32,000 nt of DNA, taken from Candidatus Saccharimonadota bacterium (lineage in GTDB: Bacteria; Patescibacteriota; Gracilibacteria; UBA1369; 2-02-FULL-48-14). Under the pieces are notes generated by a model, which saw nothing but the letters and a program-made list of their open reading frames with translations, was not told where the DNA came from and did no database searches. Each line of letters starts with the position of its first letter. Position 1 is the first letter of the stretch. A program made the position numbers and the translations under genes. The DNA is taken from NCBI GenBank assembly GCA_041661045.1, contig JBAZVE010000001.1:930001-962000 (forward strand), in the 5' to 3' direction. Shown in pieces: positions 2,303-26,913 of the stretch.

Positions 2303-2611
2303 TTATTTCAATATCTTTCTTCTATTTTCTGCTGTTTGAATTTCTTTTCTAGGGATTTTGTCGGTTTTCTTTTTGAAAAAGTGCAGAATTACGGCTGTAC
2401 CTTTATTGAATGTATAAATCAGTCGGATTTCCTCTTGGCCTTTTGTTCTCAACTCGAAAAGCGTTGTCGTGATTTTCTTACTGTGCGGCATTCTTAGTGC
2501 ATTGCCGAATTCTCGGAGAAGTTCAATTGCACGAAAAACTTTAGTACTACTTTGGTCCCCCAATTTATGGAGTTCATTTACCAGGTTCTGATCGTAAAAA
2601 AAGATTTTCAT
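2303..2611 (-). CDS. Type II toxin, RelE/ParE superfamily (phage Gp49-like / HigB-like)
   Basis: 102 aa. The LFELRTKGQEEIRLIYTFNKGTAVILHFFKKKTDKIPRKEIQTAENRR pattern (ELR...R.iY.....ill..F.KKt.k.P..ei..A) is typical of the Gp49-like toxin family. It is paired with the XRE antitoxin. G+C is low. Confidence 0.75.
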   Translation of the reverse strand: MKIFFYDQNLVNELHKLGDQSSTKVFRAIELLREFGNALRMPHSKKITTTLFELRTKGQEEIRLIYTFNKGTAVILHFFKKKTDKIPRKEIQTAENRRKILK

Positions 2612-2761: not shown

Positions 2762-3391
2762 ATGATCGAACTCATACAACTTTTTTATGAATCCTTTCTA
2801 CTACCCTTCGGTAAGTTTTTGGTTTGGATCTCTCCTGTTGCTGGGGTAGGAGCCTTATTTTTTGCTCTTTATAAATTTTGGCTATCCAAGAAACACTTAA
2901 AAAGAGATGTCGCGGCAGCAGTATATTATGAAATTTTAAGGGCTGATGGTATTGTGACAGATTATAAGAATTTCAAATCCTATAAGTTTAGAAGGAAGAT
3001 TATTGCTAATAACTCTTGGGCAAAAAATGTACAATTATTTGTAAGAGATTTCTCTGTTATAGACTTGACTAAGATTAGTGATACTTACTCTTCAGGAGAG
3101 TTTTTAGATAAACTAATTGAAAGACATGCGCTTGATCTTATTGATCAAAATAAATATGCCTCTAATAAATTTATTGAAGATGCCTTAGCGGAAATTAATG
3201 AATTAGACCCATCAGCATTAAAAAACTCAAACACAGAGCAAATTTCAAAACTTGTAGGTCCTAAATTTAGTATCTTGCCTCTTCCACCTCTATCCACGGC
3301 GACACTGGACGCGGTTACTGCTGAATATGAGTTTATTTCTACGACTCCCATCCTTACAAAATTGAAACAAATTGCTTGTATTCAACCTTAA
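2762..3391 (+). CDS. Hypothetical membrane-anchored protein (orf209), low G+C
   Basis: 209 aa with a hydrophobic N-terminus (LLPFGKFLVWISPVAGVGALFFALYKFWL, one or two TM helices). The soluble remainder has no family I recognise. Sampled 60-nt lines are 27-35% G+C versus about 50-60% in groEL/pilT lines. It lies between the CIRCE promoter and groES. Confidence 0.6.
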   Translation: MIELIQLFYESFLLPFGKFLVWISPVAGVGALFFALYKFWLSKKHLKRDVAAAVYYEILRADGIVTDYKNFKSYKFRRKIIANNSWAKNVQLFVRDFSVIDLTKISDTYSSGEFLDKLIERHALDLIDQNKYASNKFIEDALAEINELDPSALKNSNTEQISKLVGPKFSILPLPPLSTATLDAVTAEYEFISTTPILTKLKQIACIQP

Positions 3392-3770: not shown

Positions 3771-5408
3771 ATGGCTAAGAAAATTCTATTCCAAGATGAA
3801 GCACGACAAAAACTCCTTAGTGGAGTAAGGCAACTCTCCGATGCGGTGCGTATCACCATGGGGCCCAAAGGTCGCAATGTGCTGCTTGAAAAAAAGTTCG
3901 GCGGACCGATGATCACCAACGACGGAGTGACGATCGCCAAGGAAATCGACCTCAAAGATCCCGAAGAAAATGTGGGAGCTCAATTGGTTAAAGAAGTGGC
4001 AACGCGAACCAACGACATCGCCGGAGATGGAACCACCACGGCAACCGTTTTGGCCTGCGCGCTCCTCGAAGAAGGAATTCGCAATGTGGTGGCCGGAGCC
4101 AATCCTGTTTTGCTTAAAAAGGGCATGGATAAGGCTGTACGCAAGGTTGTGGACCGTCTCAATGAGATGACCAAACCGCTCAAGAGCCAAAAAGAAGTGG
4201 CGCAAGTGGCCACGATTTCTGCGCAAGACAGCGAGGTGGGTGAGGTGATTGCCGAGCTCATGGAAAAAGTGGGTCATGACGGCGCGATCACGGTGGAAGA
4301 AAGCCAGCGCGGCATTGGAATTTCTATGCGCGTGGTGGAAGGGATGCAGTTCGACAACGGATTCATTGCTCCGTACATGATCACGGATTCCAATCGAATG
4401 GAGGCGGTGTACGAAGATGTTAAAATTTTGATTACCGACAAAAAAATCAGCAGCTTTAAGGATCTTTTGCCGATTTTAGAAGCGGTGGTGCAGAGTGGAA
4501 AAAAAGAATTGGTGATTTTGGCGGAGGATATTGATGGAGACGCGCTCACCAATATTATTGTGAATAAGCTCCGCGGTGGTTTCAGCATTCTGGGCATTAA
4601 AGCGCCTGGATTTGGAGAAAGACGAAAGGAAATGCTCAAGGACATTGCAGTGCTCACCGGTGGAACTTTGATTTCTGAAGAGGTGGGACTCAAGCTCGAG
4701 AGCGTGACACTCAGCGATTTGGGAGAAGCCAAAAAAGTGGTTTCCGGCAAGGATCACACCATGATTATTGATGGGAAGGGCAGCCACAAAGAAGTGGAAA
4801 ACCGCGTGGCTGAACTCAAAGTGCAAATGGAGGACACCAAGTCCGACTTTGATCGAGAAAAACTGCAGGAACGGATTGCTAAATTGGGGGGGGGAGTTGG
4901 AATCATTGAAGTGGGGGCGGCGACTGAAATTGAAATGAAAGAGAAGAAAACCCGCATCGAGGATGCGCTCAATGCCACCAAGGCGGCGGTTCAGGAAGGA
5001 ATTGTGGCTGGGGGAGGTGCGGCGCTGCTTCACGCGGCCAAAGCGCTTGAAGACTTTAGAGGTAGCAATGAAGATGAAAATGTGGGAGCCCGCTTGGTTC
5101 GTTTTGTACTCTCCGCGCCCATTCGCCAAATTGCGGAGAATGCCGGAAAGAATGGGGAAGTGGTGATCACGGAAATTTTAAAGAGCAAGAGCGATTCCTT
5201 TGGTTATGATGCCCTCAAAGATGAATACACCGATATGTTTGAAGCTGGCATTGTGGATCCCAAAATGGTGACTCGCAGTGCTCTGGAAAATGCGGTTTCT
5301 GTGGCCGGAACGGTGCTCACCACCGGTGCGACCGTCACCGACATTCCCGAAGAGAAACCCGCCATGGGTGGAATGGGTGGCATGCCCGGGATGGGGGATA
5401 TGATGTAA
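3771..5408 (+). CDS. groEL: Chaperonin GroEL
   Basis: 545 aa. MAKKILF...AVRITMGPKGRNV...GDGTTTATVLA...AVQEGIVAGGGAALL, with the C-terminal GGMGGMPGMGDMM tail. Confidence 0.97.
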   Translation: MAKKILFQDEARQKLLSGVRQLSDAVRITMGPKGRNVLLEKKFGGPMITNDGVTIAKEIDLKDPEENVGAQLVKEVATRTNDIAGDGTTTATVLACALLEEGIRNVVAGANPVLLKKGMDKAVRKVVDRLNEMTKPLKSQKEVAQVATISAQDSEVGEVIAELMEKVGHDGAITVEESQRGIGISMRVVEGMQFDNGFIAPYMITDSNRMEAVYEDVKILITDKKISSFKDLLPILEAVVQSGKKELVILAEDIDGDALTNIIVNKLRGGFSILGIKAPGFGERRKEMLKDIAVLTGGTLISEEVGLKLESVTLSDLGEAKKVVSGKDHTMIIDGKGSHKEVENRVAELKVQMEDTKSDFDREKLQERIAKLGGGVGIIEVGAATEIEMKEKKTRIEDALNATKAAVQEGIVAGGGAALLHAAKALEDFRGSNEDENVGARLVRFVLSAPIRQIAENAGKNGEVVITEILKSKSDSFGYDALKDEYTDMFEAGIVDPKMVTRSALENAVSVAGTVLTTGATVTDIPEEKPAMGGMGGMPGMGDMM

Positions 5409-5426
5409 AAGTTTTAGTGAAGAAAA

Positions 5427-5457
5427 GGCCCTGTCGTAGTTCGGCGGGGTCTTTCTT
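5427..5457 (+). terminator. Probable intrinsic terminator after groEL
   Basis: GGCCCTGTCG (5427-5436) pairs with CGGCGGGGTC (5442-5451): 10 bp including 3 G-U pairs, loop TAGTT. It is followed by TTTCTT. Confidence 0.5.
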
Positions 5458-5484
5458 GTAAAAGGGCGGCTTTTCTGCTATAAT
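5456..5484 (+). promoter_or_regulatory. Promoter of the pilT-containing operon (TTGTAA-17 nt-TATAAT with a TGC extended -10)
   Basis: TTGTAA at 5456-5461, a 17-nt spacer, then TGCTATAAT at 5476-5484. It sits directly after the groEL terminator and 24 nt before the GTG at 5508. Confidence 0.6.
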
Positions 5485-5507
5485 TATGAGATTTAAAAAG
5501 CCTTATC

Positions 5508-5765
5508 GTGGATTCCACTCAAACAAAAAGTCAAAAGATTGCCGTTGCGGCGCAAAAAATGTCGCTTAGCCCTGCCTTTGGAGAGGTGCTTAAGCTCTCT
5601 CCGGAGCAGTGGGCCGCTTATCTTTCTCGTTTAGATGAATCCGCCGTGGAAGACTGTCTGCTTTTGCTCAAAGAAGAGGCGGATACTGATCGAGAGGTGG
5701 AGGAAAAACGCCACCGTCGCCATGAAGCAAACAAGAAAAAACTTTTGAGTCGATTACCCCAATAA
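5508..5765 (+). CDS. Hypothetical protein (orf85)
   Basis: 85 aa from a GTG start; an in-frame ATG at 5559 is an alternative. The C-terminal half is charged (EEADTDREVEEKRHRRHEANKKK). No family recognised. Its stop is 1 nt before the orf392 start. Confidence 0.45.
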   Translation: MDSTQTKSQKIAVAAQKMSLSPAFGEVLKLSPEQWAAYLSRLDESAVEDCLLLLKEEADTDREVEEKRHRRHEANKKKLLSRLPQ

Positions 5766-5766
5766 A

Positions 5767-6945
5767 ATGGCCTTTAATGTTCCCATGAGTCAGGGTGTGC
5801 CGGATGAAGCCGCTGTTAAAAATCTTTTGGAAAAAGAAGTGGTGAATGGCTTGGGTGTGGACAACACTTTGTTTGAATGGGCGAACGATAAAGACCCCCA
5901 AAAACAGGATGCTTTTGAGGCTAAACTTATGCAAATCCGGCCCAATGATTGGCAGGAATTTTGGACGGAAGAAGGAGCTATTAAGCTCGCGCATTTGAAA
6001 GATCAGCTGACTACTCGGGAAAAATTTGCCATGCTTGCTTCACATCTGCTTGGGGAGCAGCTGCTTTCCATCTTTTTCCCAAACAAAACTAAGCCCAATG
6101 TGAATCCTTTAACAATGGAGGAAGCGACGGATTTTTTTGCAAAAGATCCTGCAAAACGAGCTCGAAGAGTCGGCAAGCATTTGGTGTGGGATAACTCTGG
6201 CTTATTTTCTCAATTCACTAATCTTTTTAGTTTGGCGGATTTGGGGAAGGACCTTTCAGCTGAAGGAAGAGAGGCTTTGCCTTTAGTGCCCGGCACGGTT
6301 TGGTTTGCTAATGTGAATCTTTTGCCGCAAGAGCAGGGTCCCAAGCTGAGGCCCACTTTGTTTTCTGTTCTTCAAAAAGCCTGTGCTCCCGGCATAACTC
6401 TTTCTTTTTTGAGACCAGGAGAAGATATGCCTGCACCGGGTCCTAAAGAGATTCAGCTGTCTTTGCTCCCTGCCAGTGCTATTCCTTTGAAGAATGGAGA
6501 ATTGGATTATAAAATGTTGGATTGGTATGTGAAGCGTCATACAGTGAATGATTGCATGTTTATGCAGGCCAGCCCCTTGCTTGCCGCGATCCGTATGCGA
6601 CAACGAAAACCCGAGGAACCCATTGAAGAGGCCTTTGAGGAATCTATTGGACCTGATTTTGGCAATATGGATGAAAATAGTGATCCTGGGTTTATGACCT
6701 CTCTTAAAGGTATTTTGCCTGAAGGCCAGTTTAGTCTTGCTCCCACGGTTCCTCCTGTGCCGGATGCGCCTGCCGCACCCGCTGCCCCTGCAGAACTCGC
6801 CGCGCCTGCTGAACCCGCTGCGCCTGCTGAACCTGCTGCACCACCTGCCGCACCAGCCGTCGAACCACCCGCACCGGAGGCAAGTCCTCCGCCTGCACCT
6901 GCAGCGCCGGTTAACCCGGGTGGCCCCAAGGGTCCTCAACCTTAA
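5767..6945 (+). CDS. Hypothetical protein (orf392) with a Pro/Ala-rich C-terminal tail
   Basis: 392 aa with no signal peptide or TM helix seen. The last ~65 aa are P/A/E repeats (PAAPAAPAELAAPAEPAAPAEPAAPPAAPAVEPPAPEASPPPAPAAP). It is tightly packed between orf85 and pilT. Confidence 0.6.
   Translation: MAFNVPMSQGVPDEAAVKNLLEKEVVNGLGVDNTLFEWANDKDPQKQDAFEAKLMQIRPNDWQEFWTEEGAIKLAHLKDQLTTREKFAMLASHLLGEQLLSIFFPNKTKPNVNPLTMEEATDFFAKDPAKRARRVGKHLVWDNSGLFSQFTNLFSLADLGKDLSAEGREALPLVPGTVWFANVNLLPQEQGPKLRPTLFSVLQKACAPGITLSFLRPGEDMPAPGPKEIQLSLLPASAIPLKNGELDYKMLDWYVKRHTVNDCMFMQASPLLAAIRMRQRKPEEPIEEAFEESIGPDFGNMDENSDPGFMTSLKGILPEGQFSLAPTVPPVPDAPAAPAAPAELAAPAEPAAPAEPAAPPAAPAVEPPAPEASPPPAPAAPVNPGGPKGPQP
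6802..6837 (+). repeat. Tandem 18-bp repeat x2 inside the Pro/Ala-rich tail of orf392
   Basis: GCGCCTGCTGAACCCGCT (6802-6819) is followed by GCGCCTGCTGAACCTGCT (6820-6837). Both sit within a wider GC-rich low-complexity tract of roughly 6745-6915. Confidence 0.8.
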
Positions 6946-6953
6946 TCTAATCT

Positions 6954-8015
6954 ATGGATATCAATCTTTATCTTAAACAAGTGGCCGATAGCCGCGCGCC
7001 GGATCTCCATCTCAAAGTGGGGCGAGTGCCTTTGGTTCGTTTGGCTAATGGAGAAATTCATGAGATGGAGGATGCGGAACTCATGACGGTTCAGGGGGTT
7101 GAAGAAGTGATTGCCCAGGTTTTGAGCCCTGAAAAGCTCGCTCTTTTTAAAACAAAACAAGAGGTTGATAGCTCCTATGCTTTGATGGGAACGGGGCGGT
7201 TCCGTGTGAATGTCTTTATGGATTCGGACGGACCGGCTTTGGCTTTCCGCAGTATTCCAGGTGAAATCCCCACGCTTGCCGGCTTGGGGCTTCCGGAGAT
7301 TTTGAAACGATTCACGCAAAAATCCAAGGGACTTGTGATTGTGACGGGGCCAACCGGAAGTGGAAAATCCACCACTTTGGCGGCGATGATCAATGAAGTG
7401 AACACCACACGACGGGTGCATATTATTACCGTGGAAGATCCCATTGAATTTGTGCATCAACCCAAAATGGCGCTGATGACTCAAAGGGAAGTGGGGGCTC
7501 ACACGCAATCTTTTCCTTCCGCCATTCGCGCGGCCCTACGGGAAGATCCGGATGTGATTTTGGTGGGAGAAATGCGTGATCTCGAAACCATTTCCGCCGC
7601 CATCACTTTGGCGGAGACGGGACATTTGGTTTTGGCCACTTTGCACACTCAAGATGCCGCGCAAAGCATCGACCGTATCATTGATATTTTCCCTTCTCAT
7701 CAACAAGAACAAATTCGGACTCAGCTTTCCACAACCTTGCTTGGAGTGGTGGCACAACGGCTCATTCCTCGGGTGGATGGAAGCGGACGGGTTCTGGCTC
7801 TTGAAGTTTTGGTGCGCAACGACGCGATCACCAATTGTATTAAAGAAGGAAACACGCATCAAATCTACTCCATGATGCAGATTGGAAGAGAGGATGGAAT
7901 GATCACTTTGGACGCATCTTTGGCTGAACTTTATAAGAATGGACTGATTTCCGAGCAAGACATGTTGCTTCGGGCGCGAGATCCTGAACTCATCGCTAAC
8001 CTCATGCAATCATGA
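6954..8015 (+). CDS. pilT: Type IV pilus retraction ATPase PilT
   Basis: 353 aa. Walker A GPTGSGKSTT; ITVEDPIEF; REDPDVILVGEMRDLETI; His box TGHLVLATLHT. The C-terminal AITNCIKEGNTHQI corresponds to the PilT AIRNLIRE motif. Confidence 0.9.
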   Translation: MDINLYLKQVADSRAPDLHLKVGRVPLVRLANGEIHEMEDAELMTVQGVEEVIAQVLSPEKLALFKTKQEVDSSYALMGTGRFRVNVFMDSDGPALAFRSIPGEIPTLAGLGLPEILKRFTQKSKGLVIVTGPTGSGKSTTLAAMINEVNTTRRVHIITVEDPIEFVHQPKMALMTQREVGAHTQSFPSAIRAALREDPDVILVGEMRDLETISAAITLAETGHLVLATLHTQDAAQSIDRIIDIFPSHQQEQIRTQLSTTLLGVVAQRLIPRVDGSGRVLALEVLVRNDAITNCIKEGNTHQIYSMMQIGREDGMITLDASLAELYKNGLISEQDMLLRARDPELIANLMQS

Positions 8016-8407
8016 GTTCTCCCTTCATCAATTTAACGGATCCGGTTGTTTTTCAAAGTTTTGGTGGGGACGAGTACTGGACTAAAGTAGATTTCCCCGC
8101 GGGCTCTACGATCTTGAAAGAAGGCGAAGATTCTCAGGATTTCTTTTATATTTTTTCCGGTTCGGTTGAAATTACAACGGCCATGAAGCTCCTCGCTACG
8201 CTCGGAGCCGGTGATTTTTTTGGTGAAGCGGCCTTGCTCTCCGACAAAGAAAGAAACGCCACCGTGACGGCCGTGAGTGATACGGTGGTCCTCAAACTTT
8301 CTCAGCCCAAATTTGAAGCCTTGGTGCTCAAAGATGCCCAGGCAGCCGTGGGTATTCTTTTGGGAATCGTAAAGGTCTTGAATGGACGACTTCAAGACAG
8401 GAAATAG
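8012..8407 (+). CDS. Standalone cyclic-nucleotide-binding (CAP/CNB) domain protein
   Basis: 131 aa. ILKEGEDSQDFFYIFSGSVEI...GDFFGEAALLSDKERNATVTAVSDTVVLKL gives the beta-roll plus the phosphate-binding cassette FGE...R-x-A-T. No output domain. Its start overlaps the pilT stop (ATGA at 8012-8015). Confidence 0.8.
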   Translation: MSSPFINLTDPVVFQSFGGDEYWTKVDFPAGSTILKEGEDSQDFFYIFSGSVEITTAMKLLATLGAGDFFGEAALLSDKERNATVTAVSDTVVLKLSQPKFEALVLKDAQAAVGILLGIVKVLNGRLQDRK

Positions 8408-8460
8408 CATTGTTACTTTGGGTCTGTTTCGGTACACTATCTGTGAACCCATTTTCGCGC

Positions 8461-11400
8461 ATGAGCTTGAACCCTATTTTTGAGAAACATATCTTAAATC
8501 TTATCCGCTTCACGGGAGTTCTTTTCGCGGCACTTTTAGCGTCTTTTTTGTTTGTTCAAACTTCTCAAGCTGCTTCCTACACTTGGGATGGGGGCGGATC
8601 CACCACTGCTTGGAGCGAATGTACAAACTGGTCCACCGATGTGTGTCCCGTGGCTGCCGATTCCCTCACTTTTAATGCAACAAGCGTCGAAGATTCCGTC
8701 GTGGATGCGGCGTGGACTGCTTCGAGCGGACAAATCACGGCCCTCACCATCGCCTCCGGTTATTCAGGCACTCTTTCGCTCAGCCGTTCGCTCACGCTCA
8801 GCGGCGCATTTAGCATTGCGGGGGGTACTTTCACTGCAACTGGTCAAACCGTTGATTTTAATGGGGGGTTTACCATTACTGGGGGAACGGTTAATGCGCC
8901 GTTGATCGCGACCGCAGCAGGCAGTTTCACGCATGAAGTTGGAGGAACCTTCAACCACAATAATGGCTCTTGGACTGTGGATGGGTCCAGCCAGGTGACC
9001 TACGGCGTTGCGGTCACAGAAGACTTTTATGACTTTACTGTAAACAATACTCAAGCTACTTTTGGGGCTTTACTCATTTCGAATGGAGACACCTTGGTGG
9101 CGAACAACAACCTCAACTTAATAGATGGAGCGATTGTGACGGGCACGCTCGATGCCAAGGGTTCAACGGTGACCATTGGTGCTGATTTTGGACTTGCTGC
9201 GAATGGCACCGGTACTCTTCGCATCAATGGAGCCGGAGTTCAAACGGTAAGCATTGCCTCTCAGACGACAGCGACCTTTGAGCCCGTGTATCAATTCACC
9301 GTGGGGAATTCCAATGCCACCGTTACAGGTACGGGAGCGACGGGCCGGGTTGGTTTTGAAAGACTCAGTGTGAACTTTGGAACCGTGGACATGACGGGTT
9401 ATACTTTTGCCTCCAATGCTGCGGTTTCTGTGGCGGGAGGGACTTTGACGCTTGGAAGCGGGACCCACACCTTCACAAGTACTTTCGCCATTTCTTCCGG
9501 TACCTTCAATGGAGGAAGTGGCAATCTTGACTTCAACAGCACTCTCACCATTTCCGGGGGTACCTTCAATGCTGCTTCGGGGAACACCTTGGTGCAAAGC
9601 AATTTCACTCATATAGCGGGAGGAACCTTCGCTCACAACAGTGGAACGGTCATTGCGGATGGGGGTACTTCGACTTGGAATTTTGCCACCTCAGAAATTT
9701 TTAATAATTTTACTGTGGATTGTACGGATGGTTTCGTAATGACTATTTCAAGCGGGGATACCTTGATTGTAGAAGGAACTTTGAATCTCACCGATGGGGC
9801 GGTGGGGTCGGGAACATTGCGAGTGGAAGGAACGGCGGTGAATATTTCGGTCGATTATGATGGGGGAACCGGCCCCATGCAATTTCGAGAAGGGGCGGAT
9901 CAAACCTTGACCTTGGCGGCTCCTGGAGATTTTAATGCCGATATCACCGTGAACAAAACAGCGGGAACGGTGACGCTTGTGGGGGCAATGACTTTGAATG
10001 CCGCTTCACAAGACCTCATTTTGACCGCAGGGACTTTTGACCTCAACGGCTACAATGTGACAGTGAATGGGACCACCAGCACCATGACGGTTGCTTCAGG
10101 GGCCACTTTGCGTTTGCAAGGAGGGGAGACCATCACCGCGCTTGCGACCTATCCTTCTTTAGCGACCGGCTCCACGGTGTATTACGACGGGGGGTCTTCT
10201 TATACTCTCAAAGATTATACCTATCACCACCTTACGATTGACGGCACTCTTGGGGTCTTTACCCTGGCGGCCAATGAAAGCATTGCTGGGAATCTGACGA
10301 TCATTGCTGGTACCCTTTCTCAGGGTGGTTACACGCTGGGAGTCACCGGTACGGTCAGCAACGATGGCACTTTGCGACGATTTCAAACGGAGGCATTCAC
10401 GGGCACCATGGACACGGACTCCGGAACGGTTGAATACATTGGAAACGGGGATGGAGTGGTGGATGCCGTGACGATTACGGATTTTGGTGGGACGGATTAT
10501 TATACTTTGAAAATCAACGATGCGAATGCGACGAAAGATACCTTTACTATTGGAGGGGGGCTTTCGGTCACTACCTTGCAGGTCACCAGCAGTGAGTTCA
10601 TCCAAGGGGCAAACAGTGTTACCGCCACCACCCTGACGGTGGATGGTGGAACCTTCACCGGTTCAACGGGGGCGCTGGACATCAATGGCAATGTGACGCT
10701 TTCTTCGGGAACTCTTACGGCACCCAATGGTAGCGGATCCTTTGCGGTGCAAGGCAATTTCACGAAAAGCGGGGGGACCTTCACCCACAACAGTGGAACG
10801 GTGGTTTTGGATGCGAACGGCACCCCCACACTTACGGGGAGTGTATCGTGGAACTCCCTCACCCTGCAAGACACCAATGACAACGCCACCGACACCATGC
10901 TGACGGTGGAGGCGGGTTCCACACAAACTTTTGAGGGAACGCTCACGCTTGATGGGCTTGATGCCAGTGATCGTTTAAACATCGTTTCCTCCTCTGCCGG
11001 ATCTTTGGCTACCTTTACTTTTTCGGGATCTTCCACCTTTAGTGGGGACTTTTTGGATGTGATGGACAACACCCTCGTGGACTCTTCCACGGGTATTTCT
11101 TCACCCCTCAATCCCGCCAACTCCGTGGATAGTGGGAATGCCACCAATTGGTTTGTAACTGTGATTTTAGATTCCATTGTCATTACGGATAACAGTGGCT
11201 ACACGAATGACGCAACGCCGGTCATCACCATCTCTGAGAGTGGAACCGCGCCCACGCATGTGGCTTTTTCTTGTAATGGGGGGGGCAACTGGAGTTCATG
11301 GATCGCGTACCCAGTCGATGACATTGTGAGCACCTTCAACATCACTTCAGACGCCACGGGATGCAGTGCGACGGATGGGGAAAAAACTATTTCTGCAAAG

Positions 11401-13398
11401 ATCAAAGACGCTAGCAACGAGTCTTCCACCGTTTCAGACACCACGACTTACGACACCACAGCACCAACGGTTGTTTCGGTGAGCTCTTCCAATGCCGATG
11501 GGAACTATGGTGTGGGTGAAGTGATTACGGTAACCGTGCAATTCACCGATTCCACCATGCAGGTCACGGGTACGCCTCAACTTGAACTGGATATGGATGG
11601 TACGAACCGCCAGGCAAGCTACACCAGCACCAGCACCACCACGCTTTCTTTCACCTACACGGTGGTGACGGGCGATAATAAAACAGATTTGGACTATACG
11701 GGTACTGGAGCGCTCACCTTGAACAGTGGGACCATTAAAGATATTGCCGGGAATACGGCAACGCTCACGCTGGCTTCGCCCGGAGCTGCAGGATCTTTGG
11801 GGGCGAATAAAGCTATCAATGTGGTGACCAATCAAAATCCAAGCGTGGCCAGTGTTACCGGAACGCAAAGCAGTGCCGGAGATGGAGACATCGTGATCAC
11901 CTTCATTATGGATGATGCCGATGACGACAACACCCTTCAAGCAAAAATCGAATACAGTTTAAATGGAGGTTCTTCTTGGGCCGACCCCACGCTTTCCACA
12001 ACGGGGAGTGAAACCTTTGCCACTTTTGGAGATCCGGGTATAGATAATGCTCAAACACGACAGGTGGGACAAACCACATACATCACTTCTTCAAGCGGAG
12101 CCAACACAGTGACGATTCGTTGGGAGGCGGCTACGGATATTGCGGCTTCCACGGATATTGCGAATGCGCGGATTCGAGTTACCCCTTATGATGGAACTAT
12201 AGACGGAACGGCCGGATCCAGCAGTGATTTCATCATTGATTTGGTGGATCCCACCGGGCTGGCAAACGGGGATTTCTCCATCAATTCTCAGACCTCCTTT
12301 ACCCTCAATTGGACCGCTGTTACGGAGAGTAATTTTGATCATTATGAAATTTGGTATGGTACGAGTTCCTCTGATGTTTCTTCACGCAGTGGAACTGCTT
12401 TGGAATGGGATAATAGTGATGACGCCGCTTTAGCCACTCGCACCACCACTTCAACCGTTCTCACCAGTTCCAGCGGTCTTTCCGGTCATTTCTTCCAAGT
12501 GTTTGCGGTGGATGATTTTGGTAACGAAAGTACCGTGACCGGGTACACCATTCAAGTGGCGAGCAGTTCCAGTTCTTCCGGTACCTCCGATTCCAACAAT
12601 AGCTCCAGTGGATCTACTGGAGGTTCCAGTGGTGGAGGTGGAGGAGGATCTTCCGGAAGTGGTTCTAATGATGAGGAAGAAGAGGCCGTGGAAGAAGAGC
12701 CTGTAGAGGAGACTGTGGAAGAAGAACCCGTTGAGGAAGAGGAATCCGACAGCTTTTGGGATGATTACAGCGTGCCGGATCACTGGTCTAGTGGATACAT
12801 TAAGTATTTGGAGGAACAGGATAATATTGTGGAGGTGGCCATTCAGATCCCCACATTCACGGAAATTTTGGAAGGCATTTTCTTAGGACCGAACTTGGGT
12901 GTGAGCAGAGGAGAGGCCACGGAGTTTTTGATTGCGCTTGCGGGATACCAAGTGGATTCCATCAGCATCAATGTGAGGGATTTGATCTTCAGTGATGTGG
13001 ATGAAAACAATCCTCGAGTGGGATTCATTCAGTTTGCGTATGAGCAGATGTTGATTGGTGGGTATCCGGACGGGTCGTTTCAGCCCGACCGAGTGATCAA
13101 TCGAGCGGAGGCGCTTAAATTGATCTCCTTTTTCTTTGGGATTACCGTGGACAGTGGCTTGCGAGGGCAATCCCTGTTGGATGAGTACGGTCTCTCCGAA
13201 AGCCCTTTCACCGATATTGATTTGGAGGCATGGTACGCACCCTTTGTTATTCATGCGTATAGTTATGGAGTGATTCATGGGTATGGAGATGGCACCTTTG
13301 GACCTGCCAATGAGGTGAGCTATGCGGAGTTCCTAAAAATGTCCACGCTTATCCAAAATCTTGAAATCGCTGTTGAGCTGGCGGAGGAACTCCAGTAA
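8461..13398 (+). CDS. Giant secreted surface protein: beta-helix-like repeats, Ig/FN3-like domains, acidic linker and three C-terminal SLH domains
   Basis: Signal peptide ...VLFAALLASFLFVQTSQA/ASYTWDGGG. The first ~850 aa are rich in GGTFT/GTL repeats. An FTH..GGTF.HN.G(S/T) motif recurs at DNA positions ~8926, ~9603 and ~10759. Adhesin-type Ig-like units follow (VTVQF...VTGTPQLELDM...SFTYTVVTGDNKTDLDY...GTIKDIAGNTA), then an FN3-like unit (FTLNWTAVTESNFDHYEIWYG). The C-terminus has SLH-like repeats (FSDVDENNPRVGFIQFAYEQMLIGGYPDGSFQPD; FTDIDLEAWYAPFVIHAYSYGVIHGYGDGTFGP). I prefer the ATG at 8461 over the track's TTG at 8410. Confidence 0.85.
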   Translation: MSLNPIFEKHILNLIRFTGVLFAALLASFLFVQTSQAASYTWDGGGSTTAWSECTNWSTDVCPVAADSLTFNATSVEDSVVDAAWTASSGQITALTIASGYSGTLSLSRSLTLSGAFSIAGGTFTATGQTVDFNGGFTITGGTVNAPLIATAAGSFTHEVGGTFNHNNGSWTVDGSSQVTYGVAVTEDFYDFTVNNTQATFGALLISNGDTLVANNNLNLIDGAIVTGTLDAKGSTVTIGADFGLAANGTGTLRINGAGVQTVSIASQTTATFEPVYQFTVGNSNATVTGTGATGRVGFERLSVNFGTVDMTGYTFASNAAVSVAGGTLTLGSGTHTFTSTFAISSGTFNGGSGNLDFNSTLTISGGTFNAASGNTLVQSNFTHIAGGTFAHNSGTVIADGGTSTWNFATSEIFNNFTVDCTDGFVMTISSGDTLIVEGTLNLTDGAVGSGTLRVEGTAVNISVDYDGGTGPMQFREGADQTLTLAAPGDFNADITVNKTAGTVTLVGAMTLNAASQDLILTAGTFDLNGYNVTVNGTTSTMTVASGATLRLQGGETITALATYPSLATGSTVYYDGGSSYTLKDYTYHHLTIDGTLGVFTLAANESIAGNLTIIAGTLSQGGYTLGVTGTVSNDGTLRRFQTEAFTGTMDTDSGTVEYIGNGDGVVDAVTITDFGGTDYYTLKINDANATKDTFTIGGGLSVTTLQVTSSEFIQGANSVTATTLTVDGGTFTGSTGALDINGNVTLSSGTLTAPNGSGSFAVQGNFTKSGGTFTHNSGTVVLDANGTPTLTGSVSWNSLTLQDTNDNATDTMLTVEAGSTQTFEGTLTLDGLDASDRLNIVSSSAGSLATFTFSGSSTFSGDFLDVMDNTLVDSSTGISSPLNPANSVDSGNATNWFVTVILDSIVITDNSGYTNDATPVITISESGTAPTHVAFSCNGGGNWSSWIAYPVDDIVSTFNITSDATGCSATDGEKTISAKIKDASNESSTVSDTTTYDTTAPTVVSVSSSNADGNYGVGEVITVTVQFTDSTMQVTGTPQLELDMDGTNRQASYTSTSTTTLSFTYTVVTGDNKTDLDYTGTGALTLNSGTIKDIAGNTATLTLASPGAAGSLGANKAINVVTNQNPSVASVTGTQSSAGDGDIVITFIMDDADDDNTLQAKIEYSLNGGSSWADPTLSTTGSETFATFGDPGIDNAQTRQVGQTTYITSSSGANTVTIRWEAATDIAASTDIANARIRVTPYDGTIDGTAGSSSDFIIDLVDPTGLANGDFSINSQTSFTLNWTAVTESNFDHYEIWYGTSSSDVSSRSGTALEWDNSDDAALATRTTTSTVLTSSSGLSGHFFQVFAVDDFGNESTVTGYTIQVASSSSSSGTSDSNNSSSGSTGGSSGGGGGGSSGSGSNDEEEEAVEEEPVEETVEEEPVEEEESDSFWDDYSVPDHWSSGYIKYLEEQDNIVEVAIQIPTFTEILEGIFLGPNLGVSRGEATEFLIALAGYQVDSISINVRDLIFSDVDENNPRVGFIQFAYEQMLIGGYPDGSFQPDRVINRAEALKLISFFFGITVDSGLRGQSLLDEYGLSESPFTDIDLEAWYAPFVIHAYSYGVIHGYGDGTFGPANEVSYAEFLKMSTLIQNLEIAVELAEELQ
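12559..12750 (+). repeat. Low-complexity Ser/Gly then Glu/Val/Pro linker within the giant surface protein
   Basis: Encodes ASSSSSSGTSDSNNSSSGSTGGSSGGGGGGSSGSGSNDEEEEAVEEEPVEETVEEEPVEEEESD. It lies immediately before the SLH region. Confidence 0.75.
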
Positions 13399-13419
13399 GA
13401 TGGGGAAGACTTATTCGCC

Positions 13420-13767
13420 ATGATGGACGACATTATTATTCCAGACGAGAATGAAGATGAGGATGAAGCCGTCCCCGTTGCTTTTGAAAAACAAGCGCTT
13501 GAGGGGTCACGAGGGGGGCATCCTTCCGGGCTCAACCCTTCGGGCTATGTGAAGATTTCTTTTGATCGATTTGTGGCCTTGGTGGCCAATCACAGCTTTT
13601 TGGAGACCGTGGAACGCAATAAAAATGAAGAGGTGGTTCTGAGCACAAATTTGCTCACGGACTTGGCGAATGCGCGACGGTATTCTCCCAACACACGGAT
13701 GCCTCTCTTGATTGCAGGGGGGATTGCGGTGGGTATTTTGCTTGGTTACCTTATTTTCAACTCATGA
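13420..13767 (+). CDS. Hypothetical tail-anchored membrane protein (orf115)
   Basis: 115 aa. Acidic N-terminus (DDIIIPDENEDEDE) and a single C-terminal TM helix (MPLLIAGGIAVGILLGYLIF). Its stop overlaps the pyrH start (ATGA at 13764-13767). Confidence 0.5.
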   Translation: MMDDIIIPDENEDEDEAVPVAFEKQALEGSRGGHPSGLNPSGYVKISFDRFVALVANHSFLETVERNKNEEVVLSTNLLTDLANARRYSPNTRMPLLIAGGIAVGILLGYLIFNS

Positions 13768-14471
13768 AGACAAAGAAAGCTCGAAGGATTCTCCTCAAAG
13801 TCTCCGGGGAAATGATGGCGGAACAAGGGCAGGGGGCCGATGCCGCCGCCGTGCTTAAACTGGCTCAGGATATTAAGGCGCTTTGGAAAAAGAAAATTCA
13901 AGTGGCCATTGTGATGGGCGGCGGCAATTTTTGGCGCTATCGTGACAATAAAAAATTGAGTATTTCGCGCAGCGCTTCAGATGCCATTGGGATGCTTGCC
14001 ACCATGATGAATGCGCGGCTTTTGCAGGAAGCCCTGGAATCGATTGGAGTCCCGGCGAAATCCCTTTCGGCACATGGAAATTTTTATTTCACGGAGCCTT
14101 ATGTGCCTTCTCGTGGCAAAGCGTTGCTGGATAAAGGAACGGTTGTGATTTGTGGAGGAGGAACGGGGAATGCGTACTTTACAACAGACACGGCTGCGGC
14201 GCTTCGGGCTCTGGAATTGGAGTGCAGCGTGCTTTTAAAAGAGACCAAGGTCTCCGGCGTGTACGATAAAGATCCCATGAAGTACAAAAACGCAAAGCTT
14301 CTTCCGAAAATTTCTTATGAGGAGGTGTTGAAACGGGAGTTGCAAGTCATGGATTTGAGCGCTATTTTGCTGTGCAGTGAGAACAAGCTTCCCATTGTGG
14401 TTTTTCAGGGGAAGGCAGGCAATTTGCTCAAGGCCGCGACCGGCAAGAAAATTGGCTCCATTATCTCCTAA
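13764..14471 (+). CDS. pyrH: UMP kinase
   Basis: 235 aa. RILLKVSGEMM..., VAIVMGGGNFWR, VVICGGGTGNAYFTTDTAAALRA and GVYDKDP are typical PyrH motifs. Confidence 0.92.
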   Translation: MKTKKARRILLKVSGEMMAEQGQGADAAAVLKLAQDIKALWKKKIQVAIVMGGGNFWRYRDNKKLSISRSASDAIGMLATMMNARLLQEALESIGVPAKSLSAHGNFYFTEPYVPSRGKALLDKGTVVICGGGTGNAYFTTDTAAALRALELECSVLLKETKVSGVYDKDPMKYKNAKLLPKISYEEVLKRELQVMDLSAILLCSENKLPIVVFQGKAGNLLKAATGKKIGSIIS

Positions 14472-16653: not shown

Positions 16654-18078
16654 ATGTCTGCTGTTCTTCCCGGGCAAGATCTTTGGCTTCAAATTCTGGA
16701 AAAGGTTGAAGTAGAGCTTAAAAGGCCTCATTTCCTCACTTGGTTCCAAAACACCGCGCTGCTGTCTTTTCATGACGGTCTTTTGGTGGTGGGAGTGCCT
16801 AATATTTTTGCTAAGGATTGGCTTGAGAACAAAGTGGGCACGCAACTCATGGAAGCGATCAAGTCCGTGCATCCGGAGGTTCGTGAACTCATGATTGAAG
16901 TGGATCCGCATTTGGCTTTGCCCGAAGACAGTCGCGGGGTGGATGTGAACAAATCGTTTGGAACGAAAGAAAAGAAAACTCGCAAACTTCCGGGGCGCCA
17001 AGAAGTCCGTTTGCTTGAGGGAATTTCGAGCAAATGTCTGAACCCCAAATATTCTTTGCACAACTTTGTCGTTGGTCCCAGTAATCGTTTGGCCCACGCC
17101 GCCTCCTTGGCGGTGGGAATGAGCCCAGGGTCCATTTATAATCCTCTCTTCGTCTACGGGGGCGTGGGCCTCGGAAAAACCCATTTACTGCAAGCCACCG
17201 GAAATGAAATCTTGCGCAACGATCCCAACAAGGTGGTGGTGTACATGACCAGCGAACGGTTCACCAATGAAATTGTGGAAGCCATCGGAAAGCGCAACTC
17301 CAAAGATTTTAAGGATAAATACCGTCGAGTGGACTGTCTCATTATTGATGACATTCAATTCTTGGCCAACAAGGATCGTACGCAGGAAGAGTTTTTTCAC
17401 ACCTTCAATGAACTGTACGACAACGGAAAGCAAATCATCATCAGCTCCGATCGTCCCCCCAAAGAGTTGGACTCTTTGCAAGACCGTTTGGTGAGCCGCT
17501 TTGAAATGGGCATGATTGTGGATGTTCAGTTCCCCGATTACGAAACACGGCTTGCCATCCTGCATGCCAAGTGCCGTGACCATGAGGTTTTGATTCATCC
17601 CGAAGTCTTGGAGTTCATTGCCATGAATGTGCACGATTCCATTCGTGAGCTCGAAGGCGTGCTCATTCAAGCCATTGCTCAAGCCGAATTGGAACATTCT
17701 ACTCCCACGGTTCGCAGCGTGGCCAAGATCATTAAAAAACTTGGGCGAGAAACTTCTTTGCAGTCGGACGGCGTGGTAGAAAACACGCAAGCCCTTCATG
17801 CGGAAGATGTGATTGATCTTGTGGGCCGCTATTTCCGTATTCCGGCTGAGGAACTTTTAGGGGATTCCAGAAAAAGTGGAGTCATTCTTCCCCGACAAGT
17901 GGTGATGTATTTGCTTCGTCACGAACTCAATCTTGCTTATGAACAGATTGGATCGGAGTGTGGAGGTAAAAACCACACCACGGTGATGCATGCGTGCACC
18001 AAAATTGAGAAGCAGCTTAAGAAAGATAAAAACTTGCTTCGCGACATCAATTCCATTAAGAAAGAGATGGGACTTTAG
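16654..18078 (+). CDS. dnaA: Chromosomal replication initiator DnaA
   Basis: 474 aa. Domain I (LWLQILEKVEVEL...FLTWF), AAA+ Walker A GGVGLGKTHLL, Walker B LIIDDIQF, and C-terminal DNA-binding region (...GGKNHTTVMHACTKIE). Confidence 0.95.
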   Translation: MSAVLPGQDLWLQILEKVEVELKRPHFLTWFQNTALLSFHDGLLVVGVPNIFAKDWLENKVGTQLMEAIKSVHPEVRELMIEVDPHLALPEDSRGVDVNKSFGTKEKKTRKLPGRQEVRLLEGISSKCLNPKYSLHNFVVGPSNRLAHAASLAVGMSPGSIYNPLFVYGGVGLGKTHLLQATGNEILRNDPNKVVVYMTSERFTNEIVEAIGKRNSKDFKDKYRRVDCLIIDDIQFLANKDRTQEEFFHTFNELYDNGKQIIISSDRPPKELDSLQDRLVSRFEMGMIVDVQFPDYETRLAILHAKCRDHEVLIHPEVLEFIAMNVHDSIRELEGVLIQAIAQAELEHSTPTVRSVAKIIKKLGRETSLQSDGVVENTQALHAEDVIDLVGRYFRIPAEELLGDSRKSGVILPRQVVMYLLRHELNLAYEQIGSECGGKNHTTVMHACTKIEKQLKKDKNLLRDINSIKKEMGL

Positions 18079-18081
18079 TCT

Positions 18082-19236
18082 ATGCAGACCACTTACTACC
18101 GTCGTTACCAGGCTCCTAAGAAAAAAAACAGCAGTTTCCGCTCGTTCTTTTGGCTCGTTTTATTCTTGGTTTTTGCGCTTTTGTTGCTCCGTGCCTGTAT
18201 CTCTGTTGCCAGCTCCATGCTGGAGGAAAAGAAAGATGAAGCCGTGCTCACGCTCTATAAAGGGGAGGCGGAGATTTTGGAATGGGGCCAACAGGAACCC
18301 AAAAAAGCTTCGGATGCACAGCTGATTTTGGAGGGAGATCAAGTGCGGGTTGGGCCCGATTCTTGGGCAATCCTTTCTTTTTACGATGACACTAAGATTT
18401 TTATGGACGCCAATAGTTCTTTGACGCTCTCTGCCGTTCAGATTGCCGAAGACAGCGAACAGGTGCTCTTGCAACTTACAGAGGGGCGCATTTGGGTGAA
18501 TCACAAAGAAAACGAGGATCAAATTCTGGATGTTCGTGTTCAAACGGCAGCCATGAGTATTCAATCTCTGCAGGGACAATATTTGATTTCTCATTTGGGT
18601 GAGCAGGAAGCTCTTTTTGTGGAAGAGGGGCCGGTAACCGTGGAATATTTGGATCGCAGTGAAGAAGACCGCACCATTGAAACTTTGGTGTTTAAAGGGG
18701 GTGAGATGAGTCTTTTGGATGAAGACACTCAAATTGCACTTCAGGCTCGTGAGAATGTGAATTTAAAAGAACCTCTTCGAGAAGACGCGTTTACGGATTC
18801 TTTCTCTTTGTGGAGTCGTGGAGAGCTGGTGGCCATGGAAGAAGAGCCAAGGGAGATTGCGGAAGAGGAAGAAGAAACCTCTCTAGAGGAGGCCGAAATT
18901 CCTGACGAAGAGGCTGTGGTCGAACCTGAAACCACGACCGGTCTTAAAATTTCCATCCTTTCCCCGGCCTCCGGTTCCACTATTAAAAAAGATGCCATTG
19001 CGATTGAGGGGCAGATTGTGTCCGGAACGGCCAGCACCGTCACCGTGACTTGGTCCGGCAATGGGGCGCCCTACACCTTGGGCAGTTTTGTGGCCGGCAG
19101 CAGCAGTTTCCGCTATGTGGCCGACACCGATTATGCCAATTACTCTTTGGGCTCCAACACCTACACCATTGTGGCTTATGATGAAAATGGGCAGGTGAGC
19201 AACACGGTTACCATCACTCTCAATGCAGAATTCTAG
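18082..19236 (+). CDS. Membrane-anchored FecR-domain-like protein with an Ig-like C-terminus
   Basis: 384 aa with an N-terminal TM helix (FFWLVLFLVFALLLL). GEAEILEWG...LILEGDQVRVGPDSWAILSFYDDTKIFMDANSSLTL...LTEGRIWV resembles the FecR sensor fold pattern. An acidic linker leads to a beta-rich end (LKISILSPASGSTIKKDAIAIEGQIV...). Confidence 0.55.
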   Translation: MQTTYYRRYQAPKKKNSSFRSFFWLVLFLVFALLLLRACISVASSMLEEKKDEAVLTLYKGEAEILEWGQQEPKKASDAQLILEGDQVRVGPDSWAILSFYDDTKIFMDANSSLTLSAVQIAEDSEQVLLQLTEGRIWVNHKENEDQILDVRVQTAAMSIQSLQGQYLISHLGEQEALFVEEGPVTVEYLDRSEEDRTIETLVFKGGEMSLLDEDTQIALQARENVNLKEPLREDAFTDSFSLWSRGELVAMEEEPREIAEEEEETSLEEAEIPDEEAVVEPETTTGLKISILSPASGSTIKKDAIAIEGQIVSGTASTVTVTWSGNGAPYTLGSFVAGSSSFRYVADTDYANYSLGSNTYTIVAYDENGQVSNTVTITLNAEF

Positions 19237-19846
19237 CCCCTTCATTGACCTCACTCGTTTAACCACTTCGGGGATGCCCGTGTATCCCGGTGATGAATCC
19301 CCTGAATTGCTGCAAACGCTGGATTTTGAAGAATATCATTGTGTGAATCACTCCATAAAAAGCAGCATGCATGTGGGCACGCATATGGATGGTCCCATGC
19401 ACATGGTCAAAGAAGGCCGTCGGCTTTGTGATATTGAAGTCGAGCGGTTCTTTGGGCGAGGTCTTTTGGTGGATGCACGAGGTAAAAATCTTTTGGACAC
19501 GGATCTGCTCCCTGCGGATATTCATGCGGGCGACATTGTACTTTTTTGGACGGACTGGGGCAGCCACTTTGGCCAGCCGGTTTATTTCGAAAACTTCCCC
19601 GTGCTCACAGAGGCACTCGCGCAGCGATTGGTGGAACTCAAAGTTAAAATGGTTGGGCTCGATACTCCAAGTCCTGATCACGAGCCTTATGCCGTTCACC
19701 GCATCCTACTTAAGGAGGAGATTTTAATTGTGGAAAATCTCACCGGTTTAGCGGCTTTAGACGGAAAATCCTTTGAAGTGACCGCTCTTCCCACAAAATA
19801 TGCCGCAGATAGTGCTCCGGCTCGTGTGATCGCTAGGTTAGTCTAA
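19223..19846 (+). CDS. Cyclase-family protein (kynurenine formamidase-like)
   Basis: 207 aa. SMHVGTHMDGPMHM fits the HxGTHxDxPxH metal-binding signature of the putative cyclase / arylformamidase family. It overlaps the upstream gene by 14 nt. Confidence 0.75.
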   Translation: MQNSSPFIDLTRLTTSGMPVYPGDESPELLQTLDFEEYHCVNHSIKSSMHVGTHMDGPMHMVKEGRRLCDIEVERFFGRGLLVDARGKNLLDTDLLPADIHAGDIVLFWTDWGSHFGQPVYFENFPVLTEALAQRLVELKVKMVGLDTPSPDHEPYAVHRILLKEEILIVENLTGLAALDGKSFEVTALPTKYAADSAPARVIARLV

Positions 19847-26385: not shown

Positions 26386-26913
26386 ATGGATTTGCAGAAA
26401 TCGCTCAAACAGGCCTGGGACATTTTGCTTTTAAAGGATGTCGCCATGCAAGCGGTGGCAAAGGATTCCTCTGCTTTACCTGTTTCTTTGGGGATTTTTG
26501 CGGGAGCGACGGTGCTTTCAAAATTGGGAACTCTTTTGATCCCTTATTCCACCGGGATGATCGTTTATCGCCCCAGTTTTGTGGATTTCTTGGTGAGCTC
26601 TGTTTTGGGCATCGGAGTTGGGATTGCCATGCTTTTCCTCACCGGCTTGCTTGCGGAACGGCTGTTTCACTCTAAACTCAGCACGGAAGCAACGGTACGA
26701 GTTTTGGGTCATGCTTCTCTCATTACGGCGCTTGGTTTTTATCAGCCTTTAAATATTATTTCCGGGATTTGGTACTTGGTGGTTTTGTGCACGGTTTTAA
26801 CTCGACTTGGAAAATTGCAACCGGGTTCCATCCTCCTTCTTATTATTTTGGATCTTCTGCTTAGTGGAGTTCTTGTTGGGATTTGGTTTGAAATGATGGG
26901 GCCCTCTTTCTGA
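26386..26913 (+). CDS. Polytopic membrane protein, Yip1-domain-like
   Basis: 175 aa with about 5 hydrophobic helices after a short soluble N-terminus (MDLQKSLKQAWDILLLKD). The topology resembles Yip1/DUF1282-type proteins. The family call is tentative. Confidence 0.45.
   Translation: MDLQKSLKQAWDILLLKDVAMQAVAKDSSALPVSLGIFAGATVLSKLGTLLIPYSTGMIVYRPSFVDFLVSSVLGIGVGIAMLFLTGLLAERLFHSKLSTEATVRVLGHASLITALGFYQPLNIISGIWYLVVLCTVLTRLGKLQPGSILLLIILDLLLSGVLVGIWFEMMGPSF

Follow-up and report, generated by a model that had tools for sequence, protein, structure and literature searches.

Does a pilus retraction gene that stands apart from other pilus genes form a unit with its neighbours, or does it share no more than a neighbourhood with them? 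The question is raised by pilT on a 32,000-nt stretch of DNA (the window) from an assembly deposited as Candidatus Saccharimonadota bacterium (GCA_041661045.1, contig JBAZVE010000001.1, positions 930,001 to 962,000 of the forward strand; GTDB lineage Patescibacteriota, Gracilibacteria, UBA1369, 2-02-FULL-48-14). Here, two genes, orf85 and orf392, precede pilT, and a gene for a cyclic nucleotide-binding (CNB) protein, a giant S-layer homology (SLH) surface protein gene and orf115 follow it. A previous interpretation, the sequence-only reading, had taken this string for one dedicated module linking pilus retraction, a second messenger and a surface adhesin. We found that orf85, orf392 and the CNB gene are co-conserved with pilT, but that the giant and orf115 are not integral parts. 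The orf85-orf392-pilT-CNB core is a genuine clade-specific module that has not been described before, a conserved, relocatable unit of four genes with a conserved promoter. The region as a whole, we think with about even confidence, comprises a PilT control module, a variable SLH giant, and orf115 at the head of a pyrH-frr-rseP unit. Its features are, from 5′ to 3′:

5427–5452, + strand: intrinsic-terminator hairpin of groEL, followed by UUUCUU (RNA folding)
5456–5484, + strand: sigma-70-like promoter TTGTAA-17-TATAAT with a TG extended -10, opening the string (motif scan)
5508–5765, + strand: orf85, GTG start, clade-specific core member (open reading frame (ORF) listing, hidden Markov model (HMM))
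5767–6945, + strand: orf392, clade-specific core member (ORF listing, profile search)
6954–8015, + strand: pilT, PilT/PilU-family type IV pilus retraction ATPase (TIGR01420)
8012–8407, + strand: stand-alone CNB protein of 131 aa, a truncated form of a CNB plus GAF-like protein (PF00027)
8461–13398, + strand: giant SLH-anchored surface protein, 1645 aa from the ATG (PF00395)
13420–13767, + strand: orf115, tail-anchored membrane protein (C-terminal hydrophobic anchor; no Pfam or NCBIfam family)
13764–14471, + strand: pyrH (UMP kinase), the first housekeeping gene downstream (PF00696, 127 bits)

A six-frame ORF listing with recomputed spacings reproduced all previously given gene coordinates, gaps and overlaps: 1 nt between orf85 and orf392, 8 nt between orf392 and pilT, a 4-nt overlap of pilT and the CNB gene, 53 nt from there to the ATG of the giant at 8461, 21 nt between the giant and orf115, and a 4-nt overlap of orf115 and pyrH. 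The description as a tightly packed string therefore stands, but not its end at 13767, since pyrH, frr and rseP continue it with gaps of 27–28 nt.

To place the string in a wider context, about 20 independent related loci (numbered L001 onwards) were collected and their genes mapped by HMMs built from each window gene. A small ORF, an orf392-like gene, pilT and the CNB gene were contiguous and co-directional in 14 lineages (window, L002, L005, L008, L010, L012, L014, L015/16, L017, L022, L025, L026, L027 and L103); the contigs of L005 and L014 stop inside pilT, so that no CNB gene is visible in them. The clade, to which the organism of the window belongs, is Candidatus Peribacteria/Peregrinibacteria, within the candidate phyla radiation (CPR), and the orf392 relatives from species-representative genomes carry the names of Candidatus Peribacteria or Gracilibacteria metagenome-assembled genomes (MAGs). 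Among the core-bearing lineages, groEL identity to the window drops to 67%. The corresponding values were 57–88% for PilT and 39–76% for the CNB protein, similar to or above groEL, and 22–57% for orf85 and orf392, which, judged by these identities, are fast-evolving.

In L012, the core lies between ftsK and unrelated reverse-strand genes, and no groEL, giant, orf115 or pyrH was found there. The four genes (orf119, orf381, pilT and CNB) have stayed together in this new context and thus moved as a unit. Co-conservation of orf85, orf392 and the CNB gene with pilT had been set beforehand as a test of the module, and it was found both as contiguity in 14 lineages and as an intact core after relocation. 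None of the three was assigned to a housekeeping family by Pfam, NCBIfam, fold or profile searches. We also noted that L013, with a relocated core, and L001, of the window's lineage, were both assembled from the groundwater sequencing run SRR18595301; that sample hence harbours two or more Peribacteria lineages in which the context of the module differs.

The core also begins at a conserved transcription signal. The promoter claimed at 5456–5484 matches at 10 of 12 positions and was the second-best sigma-70-like match in a 13-kb scan. Its -35 and TGnTATAAT elements upstream of orf85 are invariant across five lineages, while the flanks diverge. The preceding groEL terminator was likewise borne out: the hairpin at 5427–5452 has a folding energy of -24 kcal/mol (z = -4.4), and none of 200 shuffled sequences folded equally well. 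As a separate observation, the groEL terminator hairpin of the relatives has the form CCCTCC-TTGTAAAA-GGGGGG followed by a T-run, and its loop holds the -35 hexamer of the downstream promoter (overlap sites at window 5406–5515, L002:9668–9750, L005:7371–7453 and L008:9669–9750). In the window, an extra, stronger hairpin lies upstream of this overlap.

The ATPase at the centre of the string is a PilT. It scored 455.4 bits against TIGR01420 (cut-off 319.1), with other secretion-ATPase equivalogs far under their cut-offs, and its closest solved structures are PilT retraction ATPases (E ~1e-98), ahead of PilU, DotB, GspE and PilB. The Walker A motif GPTGSGKST, the Asp box/Walker B region DPDVILVGEMRD and the His box TGHLVLATLHT are all present, and AITNCIKE shares five of eight residues with the aligned AIRNLIRE motif in the solved PilT structure 5zfq. 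No ORF of the window gave a Pfam match for pilB, pilC or pilM-Q, and no prepilin motif was detected in its six frames. The sequence-only reading was thus right that pilT lacks these companions in the window, but such an arrangement is no anomaly. In other bacteria, too, pilT is often encoded apart from pilB and pilC. Peribacteria genomes are reported to carry genes for type IV pilus biosynthesis, twitching and type II secretion (PMC4736985), and a pilT unlinked from other pil genes is therefore expected.

Within the core, the pairing of pilT with the CNB gene reaches furthest. It was present in every Peregrinibacteria locus examined, including L019/28/29 and L102, which have neither orf85 nor orf392; in L102, pilT follows directly after groEL. 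In L019, the two ORFs that precede pilT were considered as orf392 relatives and rejected (hhalign probability <1%). In the window, L008, L012, L015, L017 and L102, the CNB gene begins within the last 4 nt of pilT, and the two genes form a translationally coupled pair. As a control, we inspected 559 kb of sequence from 72 loci that encode generic CNB proteins; none of them contains PilT, so the pairing is specific. Neither a PilT-CNB module nor cyclic nucleoside monophosphate (cNMP) signaling in CPR was described in the literature that full-text searches retrieved. The pilT-CNB pair is best described as the deepest layer of the module, which orf85 and orf392 joined upstream in a large subclade.

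The CNB protein scored 72.8 bits against PF00027 (gathering score 27.5). Its phosphate-binding cassette FGEAALLSDKERNATV (FGE-AALL...R-N-A-T-V, corresponding to G-E ... R-x-A-T) is intact and aligns with the cassettes of PKA and PKG. No helix-turn-helix (HTH) domain was detected in the 131-aa protein, which reached 43.5 bits with the CRP model against a cut-off of 266, and no HTH_Crp match was found in the long orthologues. Lacking an HTH, it is not a CRP-type regulator, and identity as a CRP/FNR transcription factor was rejected because the protein ends at 131 aa without a C-terminal HTH.

Most orthologues are longer, 268–305 aa, with a weak GAF-like domain at the C-terminus; short forms of 150–171 aa occur in L015, L017 and L103, and the window protein is the shortest of 15. 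Compared with 75%-identical relatives of 270–271 aa, it lacks 7 aa of the beta4-beta5 hairpin through an in-frame deletion, as well as the entire GAF-like C-terminal half. Judged from this alignment, the ancestral protein was CNB plus GAF-like domain, and the window form is a truncated derivative. The truncation possibly goes back to a recombination that would have brought in the giant allele of the window, and the CNB gene found here may be a decaying or re-tooled allele. The CNB-GAF family comprises about 50 clusters, the few with a source name being Peregrinibacteria or Gracilibacteria MAGs. The GAF-like domain also has, towards its C-terminus, a CxxC motif (for example CPRCQEED or CTQCQDRD) that is conserved in Peribacteria-type lineages (L002:12232–13044, L008:12277–13092, L010, L012 and L022–L025) and is missing in L019 and L027; it may mark a metal or redox site.

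The two upstream genes are restricted to the clade. As the sequence-only reading had it, three neighbours have no recognizable family: neither Pfam nor NCBIfam matched orf85, orf392 or orf115. Homologs of orf85 lie directly upstream of orf392 homologs in the 14 lineages (HMM E-values from 1e-23 to 1e-42). The GTG start is supported by amino-acid conservation that extends beyond the first ATG in the 5′ direction. The conserved core reads W..(F/L)L..DE..(V/I)(D/E)D.LLLL.EE and is followed by a basic tail; orf85 is probably cytoplasmic, as neither a signal peptide nor a hydrophobic segment was apparent. An extra orf85 paralogue of 110 aa immediately precedes the orf85-like gene in two distant lineages (L015:7389–7721 and L014:172–504; E-values of 2e-5 to 4e-7 with the orf85-family HMM). 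The L015 copy, orf110, had been considered as an orf115 homolog, which was rejected because it is instead paralogous to the small orf85-like protein.

The orf392 family consists of 21 clusters (50% identity) among 1.84 billion representatives, and its members are always found immediately 5′ of pilT. An AlphaFold2 model from a 25-sequence alignment reached a predicted local distance difference test score (pLDDT) of 78 and a predicted TM-score of 0.70; it replaced a poor first model from seven sequences (pLDDT 56.5). The predicted structure consists of a helical domain at the N-terminus, an alpha/beta domain and a Pro/Ala tail that is disordered and encoded by an 18-nt tandem repeat. No signal peptide was seen, and the protein is probably cytoplasmic. 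Foldseek returned no significant match in PDB or BFVD, the family profile found nothing in PDB, and a Pfam scan of 25 members was equally empty. The recurring top Foldseek matches were phosphatases of the protein tyrosine/dual-specificity type (PTP/DUSP), with E-values of at least 0.09 and TM-scores of 0.17–0.24 on the query. The near-invariant columns are G70, L77, G209, E228, P240 and G244, with no conserved Cys or Arg. Therefore, assignment as a PTP/DUSP phosphatase was rejected, given the non-significant fold match and the missing CX5R loop; at most it is a degenerate relative. In four homologs (P0003, P0006, P0008 and P0009), the Pro/Ala linker is followed by an additional conserved segment, KVDKAKLEEY...WLTPAQKAGVFVLQGSPVEQA..., possibly a docking peptide or small domain, that is missing from window orf392.

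What could these four genes do together? The most likely function of the module is a clade-specific, cyclic-nucleotide-responsive control of PilT. The CNB(-GAF) protein would bind cAMP or cGMP and act directly on the PilT hexamer, altering its activity, assembly or localization. The products of orf85 and orf392 would serve as clade-specific cytoplasmic adaptors or scaffolds, and a cyclic mononucleotide would thereby gate pilus retraction at the post-translational level.

Several points weigh against this reading. Contact of the CNB protein, orf85 or orf392 with PilT is something that we infer. None of the loci, to which this search was confined, showed a nucleotide cyclase. The window CNB protein, truncated and with its 7-aa deletion, may be impaired. 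The block from groESL to rseP and dnaA is syntenic across the clade, so that neighbourhood conservation is by itself insufficient to prove coupling; apart from the single relocation in L012, co-location could be inherited synteny. Finally, the recurrence of the giant in the same slot in six lineages spanning the clade leaves some room for a functional link to a gene that we place outside the module.

The synteny just mentioned is also the alternative that survives best. According to it, the genome is reduced, and its compact block near the origin (rny, groESL ... pyrH, frr, rseP, dnaA) has simply kept unrelated neighbours side by side. The whole block is shared by lineages down to 67% groEL identity, and the giant and orf115 indeed behave as independent units. 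Short gaps and overlaps are common elsewhere in the window (dnaA to FecR +3 nt, FecR to cyclase -14 nt), so spacing is a trait of this genome rather than evidence for the module. However, inherited order alone is opposed by L012, where orf119, orf381, pilT and CNB are together in a different context, by the conserved 4-nt overlap, by the missing pilT-CNB adjacency at the 72 generic CNB loci and by the conserved promoter directly upstream of orf85. We consider synteny as the whole explanation unlikely, though it has the strongest claim among the alternatives.

Other alternatives concern how far the module extends, and here the giant and orf115 matter. The giant matched SLH (PF00395) with 77 bits in two stretches at the C-terminus. 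By inspection, its N-terminus is signal-peptide-like, basic and hydrophobic with an A-x-A-like site (TSQAAS), and beta-helix-like GGTF repeats follow; no sequence match was found among solved structures. The sequence-only reading had considered it an integral part. This did not hold, as a giant follows the CNB gene in only six of 16 lineages (window, L008, L010, L015/16, L022 and L025). It is missing from L002, L012, L017, L019, L020, L023, L024, L027, L102 and L103, of which L002 (88% PilT identity) has an otherwise identical gene order. The giants form a mosaic family, with 53–59% identity at the SLH end and 28–39% in the N-terminal repeat region. In L015/L016, members of the family flank the core on both sides, and the middle region of the window giant is 50% identical to the second giant upstream of the core in L015. 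The best reading of the giant is a facultative, variable surface-protein cassette in a permissive slot, its sequence being compatible with an S-layer protein and with an adhesin alike. Peribacteria genomes have been described to contain S-layer genes and strain-variable large extracellular proteins (PMC4736985).

In each of 12 loci, the gene that immediately precedes pyrH is an orf115 homolog. The CNB gene of L020 lies 8 kb away from orf121-pyrH, with a trp operon on the reverse strand between them, and in L102 a reverse-strand gene stands between the CNB gene and the orf115-like gene with pyrH. The junction of CNB and orf115 has thus accepted a giant (six lineages), a trp operon and a reverse-strand gene, which marks it as an insertion-tolerant boundary and assigns orf115 to the pyrH-frr-rseP unit. 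Since orf115 tracks pyrH throughout, stays there in L020 and is absent from the relocated core of L012, its proposed membership in the module was dropped. It has 92 homologous clusters, the few named ones being Peregrinibacteria or Patescibacteria except two.

An intermediate possibility is that orf85, orf392 and the CNB(-GAF) protein would form a so far undescribed regulatory complex on the PilT hexamer, placing retraction in Peregrinibacteria under the direct control of a cyclic mononucleotide, and that the giant, where present, would be a co-expressed contact adhesin drawn onto a host cell by retraction, together an attach-and-retract module of an episymbiont; this we regard as quite improbable. 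Slightly less probable still is one seven-gene machine, in which cNMP-gated PilT retraction would be coupled to the giant adhesin and orf115 for contact with a host cell. The giant family after the CNB gene in six clade-wide lineages, its presence on both sides of the core in L015/L016, and the absence of a terminator-like site between CNB, giant and orf115 in the window (motif scan and folding) are in line with such a machine. However, ten of the 16 lineages lack the giant, the close relative L002 among them, the giant ectodomains are not conserved, and orf115 remains with pyrH when separated from CNB and did not travel with the relocated core. The least probable alternative, a non-pilus role of the PilT-like ATPase and CNB protein in cyclic-nucleotide-triggered defence or secretion or in DNA uptake, draws on the facts that PilT-family ATPases also drive other fibre systems and that the CNB domain gives generic PADLOC matches to Pycsar effector/cyclase models (E down to 1e-16), but these matches are limited to that domain, the ATPase scores as a bona fide PilT above PilU, DotB and GspE, and the locus is vertically inherited in an origin-proximal core-genome position rather than in an island. 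A Pycsar- or CBASS-like defence system was accordingly rejected, since the module gave generic CNB matches only and encodes neither a cyclase nor a TIR or membrane effector domain. We return, therefore, to the four-gene PilT control module as the preferred reading.

The surroundings of the string are those of a housekeeping region, with rny, groES and groEL upstream and pyrH, frr, rseP, dnaA, relA/spoT, an H+-PPase gene and others downstream. No Rfam family and no tRNA was detected in the window. Between rny and groES, an ORF at 2303–2611 (-) encodes a Gp49/HigB-like toxin (PF05973, 80 bits), and L010 has an HTH antitoxin and Gp49 pair at the matching position. A FecR-domain protein with a glucodextranase-B-like C-terminus is encoded at 18082–19236 (+), 3 nt after dnaA, an adjacency kept in L002, L018/19 and L103. 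The cumulative GC skew rises monotonically over positions 1–32000 without a turn at dnaA (16654–18078), so either the origin is not obviously beside dnaA or skew is uninformative here. Further ORFs of 175–587 aa without a Pfam family lie at 19838–21601 (-), 26386–26913 (+), 26951–28057 (+) and 2762–3391 (+).

How does the module compare with known systems? In the CPR bacteria cultivated and studied to date (Saccharibacteria), type IV pili are reported to power host attachment and twitching; to our knowledge, the control of retraction in reduced CPR genomes has not been described. The type IVa pilT loci, such as pilT-pilU of P. aeruginosa and those behind the Aquifex and Geobacter PilT structures, encode ATPases of this family, and the window PilT has all of the catalytic boxes and an AIRNLIRE-like motif in common with them. 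In contrast to them, the pilT described here is translationally coupled to the gene of a CNB(-GAF) protein that stands alone, and two clade-specific proteins without a recognizable fold are encoded ahead of it. No pilU paralogue lies next to it, and, unlike in a canonical type IV pilus cluster, no pilB, pilC, pilM-O or pilin genes lie by pilT. Two small clade-specific families are thereby defined, the orf85-like and the orf392-like proteins, as candidate PilT partners, the latter with a confident predicted structure but no recognizable fold.

The giant shares strain variation with the large extracellular proteins of Peribacteria (PMC4736985), as well as a signal peptide, a repeat-rich ectodomain and a C-terminal SLH anchor. 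Different from other SLH-anchored or large surface proteins is its recurrence in one slot after pilT-CNB in six lineages, and it is better described as a swappable cassette than as a fixed part of the module.

Control of pili by second messengers is well established elsewhere. Cyclic di-GMP acts on pilus motors via the MshEN domain of PilB/MshE and via FimX-PilZ-PilB, and cAMP controls pili through the transcription factors Vfr, CRP and SyCRP1. By analogy, the likeness lies in a nucleotide receptor linked to a motor ATPase. The known direct control concerns the extension ATPase and c-di-GMP, whereas here it would concern the retraction ATPase and a cyclic mononucleotide. The known cAMP control is transcriptional and relies on CRP-type HTH regulators, whereas the CNB protein of the module has no HTH. 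P. aeruginosa CbpA is a small cAMP receptor without DNA-binding output, and cAMP signaling in that species is tied to type IV pili. CbpA resembles the protein described here in its CNB domain; in contrast, it is not encoded with pilT, and the CNB family of the module has a GAF-like second domain. The lineage-wide coupling of PilT to a putative non-DNA-binding cNMP receptor therefore differs from these systems and suggests a direct post-translational control of the retraction motor.

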